From a virus, in the IMG/VR virus record IMGVR_UViG_3300028781_000010: DNA of 36,947 nucleotides. One strand, 5' to 3'. A model generated the notes under the pieces. That model ran no database searches and was not told the origin of the DNA. It saw only the letters and a program-made list of their open reading frames with translations. Of the stretch, positions 3,752-13,421 are shown piece after piece; position 1 is the first letter of the stretch; each line of letters begins with the position of its first letter. A program made the translations under genes and the position numbers.

Positions 3752-4645
3752 TTAGCGCCCTCCCTGCTTCTTCCAAGCTTTGATGCGGTCAGCCGTGGAC
3801 ATCCCTGGATCGTTGATGTCTACACTGGGCTTACCCGCACCTGAGATTGTCTTCACAGGCGGCGGCGCAGAAGTGGTTTTCTTGGCAGTCACAGGCTTCG
3901 GCGTTTCCGCCGTTTCTTCACCCTCGAACCGTTCGGCCAACTTGGCGATTTCTCGAACCTGCTGTAAGCGCGGTAACGCATTGATGCGCTCGGCTTCTTT
4001 CATGTTCGTGGCTAGATGATGGGCAATCTCAAGATCGTGTTCGTCACCCATGAACAACTCGGTCAGCGGTTTGTAGGCCGGATCGGTATTCAGTTTTGAC
4101 GACACAATGTCATCCCAAGCACCATCGCCAGCCTTTTCCTCAAAGGCATCGACATGCGACTTGAACGATTCTTGGGCTTCAGCCTGTTTCCTCTGCTCCG
4201 CTTCCTGTTTCGCTGCATGGTCTTTTCGCTCAAGAGCCTGTTCAACGCGATATGCGATGTACTTGTCCTGATCGAAGTCGAAGTCCTGTAACGTTTTCTC
4301 GTGCGACGCGGCCTGCGGTTGTGGTGCAGACTCGTGCCTTACGGGTTCGCGCTTTTGGATTTCTTCCAGTACAGCAGCACGGGTGCGGGCTTCGGTGACT
4401 TGCCGTTCCCTTTCTAGCCTTTCCTTCATCCAGCGAGGCAGGCGTTTTTCGCCTTTCTGTGGAGAGTCCGCGTCTAGAGCGTCGCTTTCCCCTTCCGGGG
4501 GCTTTGCAGCTTCCGGTTTCGGCTCTGGCTTAGGCGTCTGTCGTGCCGTGATATTCGGCGTTTCAGCAGCCTTAGAGCTGGTATCGATTGATTTCAGCTC
4601 AGGTTGAGCTACCGGTGCCGTTACACCGTTGGTTTCGTCGGTCAT
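3752..4645 (-). CDS. Scaffolding protein
   Basis: Highly charged, Pro/Lys/Glu-rich, predicted coiled-coil protein between portal and coat. ATG 4645 is preceded by AAGG. The track ORF extends to a TTG at 4675. Confidence 0.65.
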   Translation of the reverse strand: MTDETNGVTAPVAQPELKSIDTSSKAAETPNITARQTPKPEPKPEAAKPPEGESDALDADSPQKGEKRLPRWMKERLERERQVTEARTRAAVLEEIQKREPVRHESAPQPQAASHEKTLQDFDFDQDKYIAYRVEQALERKDHAAKQEAEQRKQAEAQESFKSHVDAFEEKAGDGAWDDIVSSKLNTDPAYKPLTELFMGDEHDLEIAHHLATNMKEAERINALPRLQQVREIAKLAERFEGEETAETPKPVTAKKTTSAPPPVKTISGAGKPSVDINDPGMSTADRIKAWKKQGGR

Positions 4646-5004: not shown

Positions 5005-7166
5005 CAGAATCCACCTGTATACGTGTCAGGTGAAGATGGACCAATCGGACCTTCATGCGGCACAGCGAAGCCCACTGGCTGCTGTGGCATGAGGGCTGCC
5101 CCGTTCTGGATCATCGTGGCGTGACCATCGGCCTCGGTGCCGGGAATCTTGGCGACGAGACTGGCGGTCTTGGCTTCTTCCAGCTGCACCTGCGTCTGTG
5201 TCTTGGCAGCGATGTCCTGCGCGCGCGCCGTCGCGAGCGTGGCTTGTGCCTGATGATGGGCAGCCTGCGCAATGACCTGCGGCGGCGGCGGTGCGGGCGG
5301 CGCGGGCGGCGGATCGTTCGGTCCTGGCGGGATAATGCCCTGCTTGACCAGCGCCGTACGAATCCACTCCACAGCATCGTCAATGCCTGGAACGTCCATC
5401 GACTTCATCATCAGGTATTGGCCGATAGCGCCAACAGGTCCCGGCGTCTGCGCCACGGTCTGCGCGAACTCCGCCAGTTCCATGCGAGCCGTCTCGTAAG
5501 ACTTTCCGACCGTTACCGTCACATCGTACTTACCGCGTGAGAGGTCGTTTTCGACGTATTCCTTACCTGTGACCGGATCAGTGACCATCTTGTTGATCGT
5601 GACGTATTTCTCAGCCAGATCAGGCCCCAGAATGCGTATGGAGCGTTCGGCATCATAGTAATGCGGGATAGCGTCCACCAGAATCTCACCCAGCCGTTTG
5701 AGTGCTTTAACCTGATTGTCCACATAGACGAAGTTGACCACTTCCGCTTGAGCATTGCGCGCCATGATCGCGCGACCGCTGGTTTCATTTGACTGGCTTC
5801 CTACCGACGCGTCATACACACCGGTCGTAGCCTTCATCTCATCGACGGTGATATTGGACAGGTTCGCGAGGGCTGAAGGTAGCTGCGCCATCGGTTCGCG
5901 TGAAGGACCGCCTGGTGCGTTAGGGTCAGCGTTGAACAGCAATACCGGCGGATCGTCATAGCCTAGTCGTTCGTAATAGCTTTCCAGACCTTTGATCATT
6001 GCCGGAGTAGCTTTAAGCGGGCTGTTCGGAAGCTTGGCGACCACCTCCACCATCGAAGACATTTCAAAGTTGTGAATGGTCTGCGAGTCACGGGCAAAGC
6101 GCGTCATTCCTGAGTAAATCTGCTTGCCATCGATACTGATTAGATCACCCCATTGCGGAACAATCGGGATCATCGAACCACCCCATTTCGTCGGTTCTTC
6201 GAGCTTTCCATTGCCTGATACAGGGCACGAATAGATCACGTCCACATCGACTTCGCGAGTGGATTTGATCGTTACTGGTGGCGTGGCAGCCGGTGGAGGA
6301 ATAGCTGTAGCGCCAGCTGGTGCCGTGGCTGGATCAACAGGAGGCATAGATTTAGCTGCATCAGCTTGCGCTTTCTGATAACCCTCATAGTCTTCTTCAT
6401 CGACAATCGAGCCATCGGAAAGCAATAGGATCGTCTTGGGTTGCTTCTCTGCGTACCAGTACTCGGCAATGCGCACCATATCTTCGGTGCACCACAATAG
6501 GTCGCTATCACTGTCAGTCCGGGCTACATCGAAGTCCACCACTTCCGCATTAGGCCAACGTGCTGTGAATGTTGCCTTTGGAATCAGTTCGGAAATGAAC
6601 CAATATCGCGCGTCGGATCTGTCGAACTTTCGTGCAGATGGATCGCAAAACACGGTCATTGGATCAAGCACCGCTTCGATCTTCAGACATTGGTCGAACG
6701 TATCAGGTGACTCATAGTCCGACTTGACGCGCAGAACGCCATAGCCGCCGCCACACGACCACTGGAAGGCAGTGTCATAGGCGTTGTCAGCCGACGAATC
6801 GACCTCGATATTTTTGATCATGCCGTTGAGGACTTCTGCCGTGTCAACGTCCTCGTCATTGGACGCGCGGCATTTAATCTCTGGCTTGTTCTTTAGCTGC
6901 TGCCCGGTCACTCGGCGAATCAACTGGCGAACCCGATTGAACTCGTAGTTCGGCTTGTTGCGGCGCTTGGCCGTGAGATGAGCGTCCCATTGATGCCCAG
7001 CCACAAAGGCGAACTTCATGTCTTCGACGCACTGCCGACGTTGTTCGGTGTCGAACGTCATAGCATCAGAGGCGCGCTCAAGCATCTCTTTTGTCCACGA
7101 ATCTTTCTCGACCACTTTCTGCTTGGTTTCACCACCCGTTGAACGGTAGGTCTTGGACTTAGCCAT
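5004..7166 (-). CDS. Portal protein (P22 gp1-like size, helical Pro/Ala/Gln-rich C-terminal extension)
   Basis: About 720 aa, immediately downstream of terL. ATG 7166 has GGAGC 7 nt upstream and overlaps the terL stop; the track ORF extends to 7199. The C-terminal tail is long and helical, as in P22-type portals. Confidence 0.8.
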   Translation of the reverse strand: MAKSKTYRSTGGETKQKVVEKDSWTKEMLERASDAMTFDTEQRRQCVEDMKFAFVAGHQWDAHLTAKRRNKPNYEFNRVRQLIRRVTGQQLKNKPEIKCRASNDEDVDTAEVLNGMIKNIEVDSSADNAYDTAFQWSCGGGYGVLRVKSDYESPDTFDQCLKIEAVLDPMTVFCDPSARKFDRSDARYWFISELIPKATFTARWPNAEVVDFDVARTDSDSDLLWCTEDMVRIAEYWYAEKQPKTILLLSDGSIVDEEDYEGYQKAQADAAKSMPPVDPATAPAGATAIPPPAATPPVTIKSTREVDVDVIYSCPVSGNGKLEEPTKWGGSMIPIVPQWGDLISIDGKQIYSGMTRFARDSQTIHNFEMSSMVEVVAKLPNSPLKATPAMIKGLESYYERLGYDDPPVLLFNADPNAPGGPSREPMAQLPSALANLSNITVDEMKATTGVYDASVGSQSNETSGRAIMARNAQAEVVNFVYVDNQVKALKRLGEILVDAIPHYYDAERSIRILGPDLAEKYVTINKMVTDPVTGKEYVENDLSRGKYDVTVTVGKSYETARMELAEFAQTVAQTPGPVGAIGQYLMMKSMDVPGIDDAVEWIRTALVKQGIIPPGPNDPPPAPPAPPPPQVIAQAAHHQAQATLATARAQDIAAKTQTQVQLEEAKTASLVAKIPGTEADGHATMIQNGAALMPQQPVGFAVPHEGPIGPSSPDTYTGGF

Positions 7167-9444
7167 GGAATAGCTCCGAGCGCTGGCCGAAGCCTTCACG
7201 GGTGAATTGGGTGGTAAAGGAGATGTTTGGCATAGCGCCGAGGTTTAGCGTGGCGTAGTCAACGGCAATTAGCCCAGCTGCATCAGCGGAGTGGCTTGAC
7301 CAATCATGGTGGGGACCTAAGCCGATATTGCGGTTCTCATCGCGCTTTTCGTGATACCAGCCCAGCGCTGATCGTCCTGCTTCGGTTTTCTTCTCATCGA
7401 ACCACATAGAAGGAAAAGCTCTACGCATAGCTTCGATGCGCCTGGAAGCGGCACCTGCACCCATATTGGGAATGACACGCACATCGAACTGAGCTTCCAT
7501 CAACGCACTTTGATAGCTCACCTGAAATACCTTGTCGTGCTGTGCTCCATCGTGAGGAAGAACAAGCTCAGCCTTACCGTAACCGTGATCGCGTAGCCAC
7601 TGGACATGCACGCTCAAAGGTTGACCAACAGTCTCATAGTGATCCAGCACGCGTATCTCTTTGCCAATGAACTGGACGATCCAGATAGCGCATGCGTCAG
7701 CTTTGGCACCCGTTCCACCAATGTCCCAATAGGCACGTAGTGTCATTAGAGGGTCGGCAGATAGATTGCCAATGCGGCCTTGTTCCTTGGCTTCGGCTAA
7801 GGCTTTGGCGTAATACGCACCCTCCACGGAGCGTTTATAGCCACCTTCCCATATGTGATCGTACTGATCTGGCCGCTCCTCAAGGTCGCGCAAGCGCTCA
7901 CGTTCCAGTTTTGCGGGGAACTTGGGGTTATCGCGCCAATTAAGCTCGACCATCCGCACGAGAGAGTCAGTCGATAGCCGAAATCGCTTCTCGACGGCGT
8001 CAACTTCACGCTCGGGGTTCCATGTCACCCAAAGCTCAGCGTTCCAGTCCGTTCCTTCCTCACGCAACGTTGGTATCAGCGTAGACCACGCATCGTTCGT
8101 GACCGGGCTTGCCTCATCGACCCAGCAAATCAGAATGCGACCCTTTGATTTGATGCTGGCGATGTTCCGATCTAGACCGGAGAATGCGAACGAGATGCGC
8201 CCATCCTTTGACTTGATGTACTTATCGCCTACATCGTAATAGTCAGCTAGCCATTGTTCGTCTTGAATCGCCCGCTTCACTTCCTCAAGGCTGGAATCCT
8301 CAAGGCTATTCATGAACAGGCGAGCGCAGACGATGATGCCGCTAACGCCAGACGATCCAAACATCATCCCGCGTACTGCTGCCATCTTGGCGAATGATCG
8401 TGTCTTGCCTGAGTTGTGGTTGACGATACCGTTTGACAGGTAGTTCTCAAGCACCGGCACATGTAAATCCCAATACACAAGGCGGTCGTGCTTGCAAATG
8501 CTTTGTATGCCAATCAAACTATGGCGGTCGTGAACACAACTGGGAGAAAACCATGAACTATCGTGAACGCCGAGCCGAGGCATGCCGGGAATTGTTCGCT
8601 TCTTTCCATCCTGACTTTTCAGGTTGTCGTGATAAAGACCGAGCGAATGAAATTCTTGAGATGGCTCGCGAAGGAATGTTTTCTGCTGATATAGCGCAAC
8701 GTCTCGGCATAACTCCAAAGGCTGTGCAGAAGCTTTACCGTCGCTATAACTTCCCTCAGCTACAGAACTTTTCGCCGCCGCTGCGAGAAGAACGCGTTGG
8801 CTGGACAGGTGGCGTGAAGGAAGTTCGCGGGTATCTGTATTCTCGTTCGCCAGGTCATCCGCGTGCGTCCAAGTATGGGAACTATGTTGCGGTTCACCGA
8901 CTTGTGATGGAGAAGAAACTAGGACGATATCTGAAAGGATCGGAGGTTGTTGATCATATCGACGGGAATACGAGAAATAACCACCCGGATAACCTTCGTG
9001 TTTTTCCGAATAATGCGGAGCATCTTCGCGTGACGCTGAAAGGCCGTGTTCCGAATTGGTCGCCGGAAGGCAAAGCTCGGATGGGGACGCCACGTAAACC
9101 GAATCAGCCATCGTCAAATCTTGAAGCTCAACCCAGCCTCGATTCGTCAGAAAGCGATGCTCGTCCGTTACAGACATTGACCGACCATCCAGAAGAGTCA
9201 CCAAGTAAAGCTGTTGCTCGTCATATGGAATGGATGGAGTAGCTGGAGCTATAACGACTCGACCATCCAGCACCGAGTAAACGCTGCCTCCTTTGAACTC
9301 GCTTATCTTCACTTGACCTGAAGGCGTGTCGATAAGCGTATCGGGGTGGCAGCAGCCGCGCCCACCAAAAGCCCCACGGACGTCTGCTGCTCCCAAAAAG
9401 ATAGGCCGTAGCTTTGGAGGAAGCTGGACAGTGACTTCGGTCAA
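7159..9444 (-). CDS. terL: Terminase large subunit, interrupted in frame by a 314-aa intein (mature TerL predicted at 447 aa)
   Basis: Walker A is split as GAFGGRG|...|SGKTRS. Walker B is ILICWVDEA. The downstream nuclease-domain region is Asp-rich. TTG start at 9444 overlaps the terS stop (TTGA). Confidence 0.85.
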   Translation of the reverse strand: MTEVTVQLPPKLRPIFLGAADVRGAFGGRGCCHPDTLIDTPSGQVKISEFKGGSVYSVLDGRVVIAPATPSIPYDEQQLYLVTLLDGRSMSVTDEHRFLTNRGWVELQDLTMADSVYVASPSELCLPATNSEHGLSASREDAPHYSEKHEGYPGGYFSYSRRYDQQPPILSDIVLVSSPSQVGEPQHSSHTWTHADDLANENTDTRELPSRHLSSQRVLLAAAAKSSVAEGSYSDGKASAQPLELCRDVALYQQKTFLREPSQEFHSLGLYHDNLKSQDGKKRTIPGMPRLGVHDSSWFSPSCVHDRHSLIGIQSICKHDRLVYWDLHVPVLENYLSNGIVNHNSGKTRSFAKMAAVRGMMFGSSGVSGIIVCARLFMNSLEDSSLEEVKRAIQDEQWLADYYDVGDKYIKSKDGRISFAFSGLDRNIASIKSKGRILICWVDEASPVTNDAWSTLIPTLREEGTDWNAELWVTWNPEREVDAVEKRFRLSTDSLVRMVELNWRDNPKFPAKLERERLRDLEERPDQYDHIWEGGYKRSVEGAYYAKALAEAKEQGRIGNLSADPLMTLRAYWDIGGTGAKADACAIWIVQFIGKEIRVLDHYETVGQPLSVHVQWLRDHGYGKAELVLPHDGAQHDKVFQVSYQSALMEAQFDVRVIPNMGAGAASRRIEAMRRAFPSMWFDEKKTEAGRSALGWYHEKRDENRNIGLGPHHDWSSHSADAAGLIAVDYATLNLGAMPNISFTTQFTREGFGQRSELFHG
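8413..9354 (-). mobile_element. Hint-domain intein inserted in the TerL P-loop (residues C31-N344)
   Basis: Block A CCHPDTLIDT (Cys1 codon TGC at 9354-9352). Block B SVTDEHRF (TxxH). Blocks F/G VYWDLHVPVLENYLSNGIVNHN followed by Ser+1 (8412-8410). The central part, about residues 121-319, is Ser/Pro/His-rich with no LAGLIDADG or HNH motif in this frame. Confidence 0.8.
8553..9242 (+). CDS. HNH (HNH_3-type) homing endonuclease with an N-terminal HTH, encoded antisense inside the TerL intein
   Basis: Motif HRLVMEKKLGRYLKGSEVVDHIDGNTRNNHPDNLRVFPNNAEHL. HTH-like segment FSADIAQRLGITPKAVQKLYRRY. GGGAG lies 6 nt before ATG 8553. The open frame spans 8433-9242. It is the only plus-strand gene in the late region. 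Confidence 0.75.
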   Translation: MNYRERRAEACRELFASFHPDFSGCRDKDRANEILEMAREGMFSADIAQRLGITPKAVQKLYRRYNFPQLQNFSPPLREERVGWTGGVKEVRGYLYSRSPGHPRASKYGNYVAVHRLVMEKKLGRYLKGSEVVDHIDGNTRNNHPDNLRVFPNNAEHLRVTLKGRVPNWSPEGKARMGTPRKPNQPSSNLEAQPSLDSSESDARPLQTLTDHPEESPSKAVARHMEWME

Positions 9445-12195: not shown

Positions 12196-12272
12196 TGGCA
12201 GCGCGGGCAGGATTTGAACCTGCAATACTCGACTTCAAAGGACGATGCCTTACCTGATTTGGCTACCGCGCT
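12196..12272 (-). tRNA. tRNA-Gln: tRNA-Gln (anticodon UUG)
   Basis: Hand-folded cloverleaf. Acceptor AGCGCGG/CCGCGCT, discriminator G, encoded CCA. Anticodon loop CUUUGAA. T-arm GCAGG-TTCAAAT-CCTGC. Confidence 0.85.
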
Positions 12273-12354
12273 GTAGGTAACCTGAAACATCTCACGACGT
12301 GACAGGCTCAGTGCAGGGCGTCTAGGGGGATAGACAGAAATCCCTACAGAATTT

Positions 12355-12442
12355 TGGCGGAAATGGAAGGATTCGAACCTTCGCGCCCTTTCGAACGTAC
12401 CGGTTAGCAACCGATTGCCTTCATCCACTCGGCCACACTTCC
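12355..12442 (-). tRNA. tRNA-Ser: tRNA-Ser (anticodon GCU), type II with a long variable arm
   Basis: Acceptor GGAAGTG/CATTTCC. D-arm GCCGAGTGG. Anticodon stem ATCGG/CCGGT with loop TTGCTAA. T-arm GAAGG-TTCGAAT-CCTTC. Encoded CCA. Confidence 0.85.
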
Positions 12443-12448
12443 TAAAAA

Positions 12449-12535
12449 TGGCGGAAGGTTGAGGAGTCGAACCCCTACCGTTTCCAGTCCCTCCGGGTTC
12501 AAACCGGATTGCCAGCCAACCTAGCGGAACCTTCC
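12449..12535 (-). tRNA. tRNA-Ser: tRNA-Ser (anticodon UGA), type II
   Basis: Acceptor GGAAGGT/ACCTTCC. Anticodon stem TCCGG/CCGGA with loop TTTGAAC. Long variable arm, T-loop TTCGACT, encoded CCA. The D and T stems are imperfect. Confidence 0.7.
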
Positions 12536-12743: not shown

Positions 12744-12959
12744 TTAGCCTGCATTGAACGATGCAAGAATGATGCCAGATTCTCCGTCATAGACATCCCA
12801 AAGAAGCTTAGCTCTGACATTCTCAGATTTACTTGACCAAGAATCATAGAAATCTGGATGAAACTCTTTGGCTGATTTTTCGTCAATTGCCGCAACAACA
12901 CATCCATCAAATGTGTCATAGCCTTCGTTTTCTTCTTGTGTAAGTAACCAAAGTTTCAC
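12744..12959 (-). CDS. Hypothetical protein
   Basis: 71-aa ORF. Start overlaps the upstream stop. Confidence 0.55.
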   Translation of the reverse strand: MKLWLLTQEENEGYDTFDGCVVAAIDEKSAKEFHPDFYDSWSSKSENVRAKLLWDVYDGESGIILASFNAG

Positions 12960-13198
12960 TTTCTACCCTCCGACCTGTGCATATCTTCGCGCAAATCCTG
13001 CACCCTTAGCTCGTTGCACCGCTGGTCGCTATGCTCGATTTCAGTTCGAAGTGTATCGATTAGCGACGACTTGTCCGATTCTTGGTTATGCACGATCACC
13101 GGTCCTCCGATGCCCATCGCCGCCATCAGGGCGTAGACCATCCACTGCGGGACTGGCTTCGGACTGTTTAGGCGATGCGTTGGTAATTCGTCGGTCAT
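12956..13198 (-). CDS. Small membrane protein (one TM segment: WMVYALMAAMGIGGPVIV)
   Basis: ATG 13198 (a GTG lies at 13201), with AGGA upstream. Confidence 0.5.
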   Translation of the reverse strand: MTDELPTHRLNSPKPVPQWMVYALMAAMGIGGPVIVHNQESDKSSLIDTLRTEIEHSDQRCNELRVQDLREDMHRSEGRK

Positions 13199-13421
13199 CA
13201 CCTGATCCTGTGAGCTTCTTGGCTTCCATCTTACGGCGCTTTATTTCCTTGCGATAGTAGTCTGCATTGCTCTGCATTTTCTTTGCCGTATCCCGCGTGG
13301 ATTTTTCCAAAGCGACAAGTTGGGTCAAGTCAAAAAATTCAACTGGGTAGCCAAGCAATTGTGATTGTTCAGATTTACGGTTTATCCGGTCTGAGATGGC
13401 TTTGGATTCGCGGACTGTCAT
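13086..13421 (-). CDS. Hypothetical basic protein; the last ~38 codons overlap the next gene out of frame
   Basis: 111-aa ORF coupled by ATGA to the upstream gene. The C-terminal 113-nt overlap with 12956..13198 is unusual. Confidence 0.45.
   Translation of the reverse strand: MTVRESKAISDRINRKSEQSQLLGYPVEFFDLTQLVALEKSTRDTAKKMQSNADYYRKEIKRRKMEAKKLTGSGDDRRITNASPKQSEASPAVDGLRPDGGDGHRRTGDRA

Follow-up and report, generated by a model that had tools for sequence, protein, structure and literature searches.

How can a phage keep the gene for its large terminase subunit (TerL) readable when an endonuclease gene lies on the opposite strand within it, and whom does such an arrangement serve? The question is raised by a viral DNA of 36,947 nucleotides (nt), the IMG/VR record IMGVR_UViG_3300028781_000010, the whole of which is called the window here. 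In this DNA a plus-strand open reading frame (ORF) for an HNH endonuclease (8433–9242; 269 amino acids (aa) from a TTG) lies wholly inside the minus-strand ORF of 761 aa for a TerL precursor (7159–9444), and both frames are open. We consider it probable that the locus is a selfish element of two genes on two strands, which has entered terL at its Walker A (P-loop) codons: an intein on the one strand and, antisense to the loop between its splicing lobes, an HNH gene on the other.

The minus-strand product is a TerL of the PBSX/Terminase_3 type (Pfam Terminase_3, E = 2.4e-16, residues 344–530), and exactly this 761-aa precursor is found as protein P0001 in the JGI data. It contains an intein in frame (Pfam Intein_splicing, E = 2.3e-9; 37.7 bits versus a cut-off of 35.8, a margin that is narrow because the long linker splits the match). 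The intein divides the P-loop, which reads GGRG|CCHPDTL...IVNHN|SGKT. The N-extein (9355–9444, 30 codons) ends with GGRG, the first half of the Walker A motif; it is followed by the class-1 intein of 314 aa (8413–9354), which begins with CCHPDTL and ends with IVNHN before the +1 serine, and by the C-extein (7159–8412), which runs from SGKT to the stop codon. N-extein and C-extein together would give a spliced TerL of 447 aa. Alignment to the mini-intein relatives P0242 and P0244 sets the limits of the N-terminal splicing lobe with blocks A and B (9085–9354) and of the C-terminal lobe with blocks F and G (approximately 8413–8520; ...SICKHDRLVYWDLHV...NGIVNHN). Hint splicing blocks at both ends of the intein had already been recognized in a first-pass annotation, which was made from the DNA and its ORFs without database searches. 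The residues C1, T63 and H66 (the TxxH of block B, which in the window reads ...TDEH...) and H313-N314 are invariant (alignment A4), and the junction HN|[ST]GK[ST] is found in nearly all relatives.

Between the two lobes the intein frame runs through about 188 codons without a stop (8521–9084, minus strand). This stretch is the antisense translation of the HNH cassette and is referred to as the linker. Its amino acid sequence is not conserved among relatives, and its translation has neither an HNH nor any other Pfam match, in agreement with the first-pass annotation, which had seen no LAGLIDADG or HNH motif there. A canonical in-frame HNH intein is rejected on these grounds and because the middle is predicted to be unstructured. 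A group I intron is rejected as well, since no intron family from Rfam is found anywhere in the window and since the host frame is continuous with in-frame intein blocks.

The nuclease is a product of the plus strand. This protein matches Pfam HNH_3 (E = 1.6e-12; 47.3 bits versus a cut-off of 24.8) and PHROG 10730 'HNH endonuclease' (E = 7e-25), so that the HNH_3 core which had been proposed antisense within the intein linker is indeed there. The proposed gene of 810 nt is open on both strands, but its extent was overstated: the likely start is the ATG at 8553, from which onward the relatives align, and conservation reaches only to about 9075. The conserved core (8553–9074, plus strand, 174 codons) consists of a putative N-terminal helix-turn-helix (HTH) module followed by an HNH_3 nuclease of the beta-beta-alpha-metal type. 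The C-terminal tail (9075–9242, plus strand, about 55 codons, stop codon TAG) is not conserved, lies antisense to the N-terminal splicing lobe and ends at different positions in different relatives. HNH coding is thus limited to 8553 to about 9075, and the DNA of the tail, where it overlies the N-terminal lobe, is constrained in the intein frame. Of the catalytic residues, H135, N147 and N154 do not vary within 64 sequences and H157 hardly does, and the family profile matches the homing endonuclease I-HmuI (1u3e) across the HNH motif (E = 0.006). A structure model built from a 64-sequence alignment has a predicted local distance difference test score (pLDDT) of 94–98 at residues 1–170, with confidence falling after about residue 175 and near 50 beyond 180. 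Its N-terminus is a confident four-helix domain whose best fold matches are of the LuxR/GerE HTH type (probability 0.8–0.9, E > 0.2); the resemblances found in the PDB fold search are at domain level only.

Which of the two strands is under selection, and where? Per-site diversity was obtained from 46 aligned, non-identical intein loci and projected on the window coordinates. The offset of the two frames is such that HNH codon position 3 coincides with TerL position 2, and TerL position 3 with HNH position 2. From 8293 to 8487 and from 9103 to 9432 diversity peaks at TerL position 3, the intein/TerL frame on the minus strand being constrained, and from 8563 to 9072 it peaks at HNH position 3 (0.58–0.69 versus 0.13–0.47 at the other two positions), the HNH frame on the plus strand being constrained. 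The zones in which the constraint switches are short (about 8490–8560 and about 9060–9100), with a limited resolution there because the DNA alignment reaches down to about 50% HNH amino acid identity. It follows that the splicing lobes are coding on the minus strand and the middle on the plus strand, and that the intein-frame amino acids of the middle are free to vary. The functional domains of the two strands therefore occupy separate stretches of the same DNA, as the first-pass annotation had supposed. In a structure model of the intein, which was built from a shallow alignment of 6 sequences only, residues 1–89 (pLDDT 54–73) and 278–296 (about 78) form beta-rich lobes, and residues 90–278 (pLDDT 21–39) appear as a linker without a predicted fold. 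A conserved domain in the intein frame of the middle, which had been named as the case that would speak against a nested gene, was not seen: diversity peaks there at TerL position 2, and both codon-position diversity and the structure model lead to its rejection.

The linker amino acids are free to vary, and still stop codons are avoided among them. In the window the 174-codon HNH core contains 0 stops in the TerL frame, and the two remaining antisense frames contain 8 and 3. An open TerL frame has a probability of 4e-4 when synonymous codons are permuted, 1e-4 when codons are redrawn from the phage's own usage, 3.5e-4 with uniform synonymous choice and 3.5e-4 with codon shuffling. Selection for a translatable TerL had been deduced in the first-pass annotation from an estimate of 2e-6 over 270 codons. 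The deduction stands with the shuffle probabilities of 1e-4 to 4e-4; the estimate was too optimistic because part of the span is genuine intein coding. The same relative frame is stop-free in 51/51 distinct HNH cores, in which a mean of 5.4 stops each is expected (median probability of an open frame <5e-4) and of which the other two antisense frames contain up to 16 stops. A chance open frame due to HNH codon composition, for which codon shuffling had been suggested as the check, is rejected by the four types of shuffle and by the family-wide result. Selection maintains the open TerL frame through the HNH cassette. Indeed, the no-stop constraint is so strong that some dipeptides are barred from the nuclease. 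In this frame arrangement a phenylalanine before a codon beginning with A forces an antisense stop, which is why Phe followed by Ile, Met, Thr, Asn or Lys is avoided: in 63 distinct HNH proteins none of 328 Phe residues is followed by one of these five, about 74 such cases being expected.

Is the arrangement peculiar to the window? A megablast search with its TerL region against 50,697 phage records revealed no near-identical DNA. When phage genomes were searched with the HNH protein, matches were found in the genus of Pectobacterium phage Ymer, in Dickeya phage Setonix and in Pseudoalteromonas phage PHS3. In Ymer (OP748252.2, 1667–3931; L001) the HNH gene lies antisense inside a 754-aa ORF with the junctions GFG|C...HHN|TGKS, and in PHS3 (KX912252.1, 1706–3832; L002) inside a 708-aa ORF with GGAG|C...HHN|SGKS. 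Among the window, Ymer and PHS3 the TerLs are only 19–23% identical and the HNH proteins 33–36%. A scan of IMG/VR with the HNH alignment yielded 283 relatives; 80 of these loci were retrieved and make up, together with the window, Ymer and PHS3, the set of 83 loci used here. Relatives were also found in 405 protein clusters, and the HNH family comprises several hundred sequences with HNH identities of about 35–90%. The open minus-strand ORF in relatives is about 700–800 aa long and has the HN|[ST]GK[ST] junction. How the HNH gene is oriented in relatives had been posed as a question with the first-pass annotation: the antisense layout recurs, and a sense-orientation HNH is found in 0/83 loci. 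A scan of species-representative bacterial genomes yielded only some 7 relatives of full length, each on a short metagenome-assembled contig; it revealed no cultured lysogen.

The minus-strand frame is open across the whole HNH match in 81/83 loci. The two exceptions are L058, which lies at a contig end, and L033 (IMGVR_UViG_3300037189_007819), which has a single in-frame stop in the linker at 4085–4103 with the antisense HNH gene intact. This stop leaves an N-terminal ORF of 266 aa (N-extein and N-terminal lobe) and a C-terminal ORF of 452 aa (C-terminal lobe and C-extein). It could be a sequencing error, the mark of a dead gene or a natural transition to a split intein ('fractured gene').

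The proteins that harbour the element are TerLs of the Terminase_3 and of the T4 type (Terminase_6N) and one helicase, and the site is always the P-loop. In the latter case (L081, 2619–4886, minus strand) the intein with its antisense HNH gene lies in a helicase-like protein (Pfam Helicase_C) with the junction HN|TGLGKS; the element has therefore crossed between different P-loop ATPases. The phages of the Ymer genus and PHS3 are cultured and form plaques, and hence their precursors must yield a working TerL. From the invariant splicing residues, the purifying selection on the lobes and these viable cultured carriers we infer that the intein splices in cis.

Gene callers do not cope well with such loci. 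A homologue search with the intein as query found 6 proteins only and missed P0001, probably because the search relies on shared words and because callers usually break the precursors; for example, P0245 and P0246 are truncated gene calls that start within the linker. In GenBank the precursor of the Ymer TerL appears as a 'hypothetical protein' with the HNH gene left unannotated, and the TerL of PHS3 is truncated to the C-terminal 391 aa with HNH annotated as a free-standing gene. The paper that describes the Ymer genus makes no mention of an intein or an HNH gene. As a consequence of this mishandling, TerL phylogenies and packaging-type predictions for such phages can be wrong.

If the element is mobile, alleles without it should be found. 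The first-pass annotation had predicted both intein-less and mini-intein alleles, and both exist. A search with the 447-aa spliced TerL retrieved many intein-free homologues of exactly 447 aa that are 81–87% identical and read an uninterrupted GGRGS[GA]KT. The DNA of two intein-free alleles has a precise empty site, and the site of L085 or L083 reads GGTCGAGG(T/G)TC(G/A)GC(G/C)AAGAC. Among named TerLs the nearest are terminases of the PBSX family (about 70%) from prophages of Brucella/Ochrobactrum, Vogesella and Stenotrophomonas. In P0242 and P0244, which the search with the intein brought up, this TerL site is occupied by mini-inteins of 131 and 140 aa, whose lobes are closely similar and which lack HNH. 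A locus with a mini-intein (L086) and one with the HNH gene (L087) are 95.1% identical over 1381 nt, the homology starting exactly at the C-terminal lobe. The segment of the window that is absent from mini-inteins (about 8521–9084) comprises the HNH core with its upstream signals and little else. The HNH cassette is thus a discrete module that is gained or lost. An invertible cassette is rejected, since its boundaries are without flanking inverted repeats (a search revealed two unrelated, imperfect pairs only) and since the HNH gene is never found in sense orientation. At the left cassette edge an exact 10-nt direct repeat, GGCGGTCGTG, is present at 8481–8490 and 8523–8532, 42 nt apart. It flanks the promoter-like motif described below, with copy one being antisense of intein His-Asp-Arg codons, and could be due to chance or be a remnant of cassette insertion.

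Over 2607 pairs HNH identity correlates with splicing-lobe identity with r = 0.83 and with C-extein identity with r = 0.59. There are 156 pairs in which the HNH proteins are at least 60% identical and the C-exteins at most 35% identical or alignable only locally over a short distance (<150 aa). This pattern fits a homing element that recognizes conserved P-loop DNA, and the constant insertion site points to this DNA as the probable HNH target. The intein-free locus L083 also carries, at 12755–13318, a free-standing HNH_3 gene between the tail-accessory genes P22_Tail-4 and Phage_stabilise; kinship of this gene to the HNH gene of the window is rejected (E = 1.7).

Can the HNH gene be expressed? 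It opposes a long block of minus-strand genes and therefore needs its own transcription. The GGGAG that the first-pass annotation had noted six nt before the ATG at 8553 is located at 8542–8546 (plus strand) and resembles a Shine-Dalgarno sequence. In 37/63 distinct copies a Shine-Dalgarno-like 4-mer stands 4–18 nt before the HNH ATG (background 16%). A putative promoter is present at 8492–8520 (plus strand) with TTGCAA (8492–8497) as −35 box, a spacer of 17 nt and a weak −10 box CAAACT (8515–8520), and many relatives have TTGCxx-17-TATAAT upstream of HNH. A −10-like hexamer, i.e. one with at least 5/6 matches to TATAAT, starts 31–45 nt before the ATG in 26/64 distinct loci, most other 10-nt bins having 0–3. 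Of the two boxes, the −35 falls within the C-terminal lobe, antisense to the intein codons Ile-Cys-Lys, and the −10 at the cassette edge. These Shine-Dalgarno-like and promoter-like motifs support, but do not prove, an autonomous expression of the HNH gene. That the backwards orientation is a selected design rather than a frozen accident, with a cassette-borne promoter made partly of intein codons, is a rather doubtful idea. If it were true, the nuclease could be made independently of the late operon, e.g. early, while a co-infecting intein-free genome is still cuttable, and convergent transcription or antisense RNA could tune terL expression. The HNH family would then be a natural long-term experiment in two-strand coding, in which the sequence space of one protein is visibly restricted because the other strand has to stay readable.

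How the element would function as a two-gene, two-strand selfish element can be outlined as follows. The 761-aa precursor would be translated from the minus strand; the intein lobes (residues 1–90 and about 279–314) would fold together, excise the intein and rejoin GGRG to SGKT, which would yield a functional 447-aa TerL and render the insertion harmless. The loop DNA, which in canonical inteins encodes an in-frame endonuclease domain, is a reversed cassette of the free-standing type with promoter-like motif, ribosome-binding site and ATG, from which an endonuclease of about 175 aa (HTH plus I-HmuI-like HNH_3) would be expressed on its own. The intein frame would read the same cassette antisense as an apparently unstructured linker of about 188 residues, of which it would be required that it has no stop codon and does not block splicing. 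During co-infection the HNH protein would nick or cut intein-free terL alleles at the conserved P-loop DNA, and repair would copy intein and HNH gene into the cut allele, i.e. homing would take place. The likely origin is a free-standing HNH gene that invaded a mini-intein in an orientation leaving one antisense frame repairable to open.

It should be noted that several observations weigh against this outline. HTH_23 matches the plus-strand product with 22.5 bits, which is under the Pfam cut-off of 24.6, and when the fold of the whole HNH model was compared with the PDB, no match was significant (best E = 0.23). The intein model suffers from its shallow alignment. The promoter-like motif of the window, TTGCAA-17-CAAACT, is weak (7/12); a consensus promoter scan of the window found no plus-strand site, and the motif was seen only by comparing relatives, so that the HNH copy of the window may be poorly expressed. 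The in-frame stop of L033 means that the open frame is not absolute. And in two pairs of loci (L007 and L012, L029 and L056) the HNH proteins are 68–70% identical and the splicing lobes only 40–46%; intein and HNH gene may therefore not always travel together (68% versus 40%), and different intein lineages may swap HNH cassettes.

Some of these points would also be expected if the HNH gene, at least in the lineage of the window, were an inactive relic drifting to loss within an intein that is now passed on vertically and has a long linker of junk sequence. The −10 box is degenerate in the window, L003 and L004 (CAAACT or CAATCT) as compared to TATAAT in many relatives, mini-intein derivatives without HNH exist, and the homing-cycle model from the literature predicts decay of the endonuclease after fixation. 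A relic would, however, hardly be found with strong purifying selection on the HNH frame (46 relatives), with catalytic residues that are invariant in 64 sequences and with an ORF that is intact in every distinct copy examined. The HNH of the window is, moreover, 86–90% identical to the undisrupted HNH of L003 and L004, and targets for it exist, since intein-free alleles up to 87% identical still circulate. We therefore regard a relic as improbable. Could the nuclease instead serve the phage, in packaging or as a weapon against co-infecting genomes, its position in terL reflecting a functional coupling? For other phages, published work describes terminase-adjacent HNH nucleases that aid cos cleavage (PMC3592412) and nuclease genes that mark boundaries of genetic exchange between phages (PMC10448857). 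Here the terL neighbourhood is P22-like (portal, coat). P22-like phages generally package by headful and are not known to need a cos-site HNH. Furthermore, the HNH protein is dispensable, since close relatives with an intein-free 447-aa TerL or a mini-intein TerL package DNA without it, and the cassette is shared by unrelated TerL families and a helicase, in each case at the P-loop, which fits target-site homing rather than a part in packaging. We therefore consider a service to the phage very improbable.

We consider it extremely improbable that there is no cis-splicing at all, TerL being formed by trans-splicing of two separately translated halves or the gene being defective. The continuous frame in 81/83 loci would serve no purpose for halves that are translated apart, the need to avoid stops shapes even the amino acid sequence of the HNH protein, and it is the contiguous form that is found in cultured phages. 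These findings outweigh the linker stop of L033 with its ORFs of 266 aa and 452 aa and the precedent of fractured genes, in which a free-standing endonuclease gene lies between the halves of a split intein, in one case in a terminase (Dassa et al. 2009, PMC2677866). For the window a fractured gene or naturally split intein is rejected because there is one continuous ORF of 761 aa.

How, then, does the two-strand element compare with what is known? The first-pass annotation knew of no described intein with a separate, oppositely oriented endonuclease gene. This claim has to be withdrawn, since LAGLIDADG (1998, 2002) and VSR-like (2025 preprint) precedents exist. In a survey of 784 actinophage inteins 63 were found with non-canonical endonucleases, which include antisense LAGLIDADG and VSR-like ones and an EndoVII-like one in another frame, TerL being among the hosts; HNH in actinophage inteins is reported in frame only (Gosselin, Arsenault & Gogarten, bioRxiv 10.1101/2025.01.02.630785). 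In the same preprint the first antisense LAGLIDADG cases, Synechocystis DnaX and a Chloroflexus SpoVR-like protein, are credited to Gorbalenya 1998 and Gogarten 2002, and a P-loop route for the switching of host proteins is proposed for actinophage inteins. The element of the window shares with the antisense-endonuclease inteins that the intein is contiguous with its splicing blocks intact, that the endonuclease ORF lies between the blocks on the opposite strand and that the intein frame there is open without a recognizable fold. The proposed origin, a free-standing endonuclease gene invading an intein, is also the same, as are the signs of continuing horizontal transfer and the P-loop sites as a route between host proteins.

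It differs from the antisense LAGLIDADG and VSR-like inteins in that its nuclease is an HNH_3 with a putative N-terminal HTH, and for this reason it is a variant outside these described subtypes. Unlike those of the actinophages, its carriers are phages of Gram-negative bacteria and environmental phages, and the family is large, with the IMG/VR relatives and protein clusters counted above. Neither the strand-switching constraint and the banned Phe dipeptides nor a positionally conserved promoter-like motif and a 95%-identical pair with and without cassette were found in the text of the preprint. In full-text literature searches no description of an antisense HNH (HNH_3) in an intein was found. 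The architecture as such is thus already known, with LAGLIDADG and VSR-like endonucleases, and its HNH_3 version was not found described.

Fractured genes resemble the element in that an endonuclease gene of the free-standing type, with control elements of its own, is located where an intein has its endonuclease inserted, that phage genes of DNA metabolism or packaging are affected, including one terminase, and that the evolutionary model, in which an intein is invaded by an endonuclease gene, is the same (Dassa et al. 2009, PMC2677866). They differ in that the host gene is in two ORFs, that the endonucleases are GIY-YIG or Vsr-like and that splicing is in trans. The terL of the window is unbroken, since the inserted gene has an open antisense frame; among its relatives L033 is the only one (1/83) in a fractured-gene-like state. 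In canonical HNH-containing inteins (1997, as cited in the preprint of Gosselin et al.) an HNH-type nuclease is likewise found in the loop that separates the lobes. It belongs there to the intein polypeptide, whereas in the window it is encoded separately on the opposite strand, with a start codon and ribosome-binding site of its own. In phage ShiLan an HNH gene is also nested in an open host ORF, so that DNA is read in two overlapping frames, but this gene is hidden out of frame on the same strand of a methylase ORF without a splicing domain, and the insert is thought to form a loop that the host protein retains (Arsenault et al. 2025, PMC11855218). The HNH gene of the window runs antisense, and the intein is predicted to remove the peptide that results from read-through. 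I-HmuI and other phage HNH_3 homing endonucleases have the same HNH_3 catalytic motif and are modular, with a nuclease and a DNA-binding domain, as the window protein is predicted to be. In the window protein the putative HTH comes first, unlike in I-HmuI, and I-HmuI resides in a group I intron, of which none was detected in the window.

These findings extend the rare antisense-endonuclease intein architecture to the HNH family and indicate that it need not be a short-lived accident but can be widespread, old and actively maintained. The L086/L087 pair, which can be seen as before and after, supports the view that inteins acquire endonucleases by capture of free-standing genes. For the study of overlapping genes the loci form a large body of natural data: the need to avoid stops on one strand has a measurable effect on which dipeptides the protein encoded on the other may contain. 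For intein engineering it is of interest that an intein is predicted to tolerate an unstructured linker of about 188 residues and that natural mini-inteins of 131–140 aa exist at the P-loop site.

A few other features may be added. One relative (L060, 1605–4895, minus strand) has a TerL of 1097 aa with a P-loop intein and antisense HNH gene (Intein_splicing residues 116–408) and an additional Hint_2 match at residues 506–548, and thus apparently has two inteins. In the window terL lies upstream of the portal gene, which follows just downstream in minus-strand reading. The 3' end of terL overlaps the start of the listed portal ORF (GTG at 7199) by 41 nt on the same strand (7159–7199); the true portal start may be further downstream. 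Finally, at 12196–12535 on the minus strand the window contains three tRNA genes, Gln-TTG, Ser-GCT and Ser-TGA, of which Rfam detects 2 and ARAGORN all 3.

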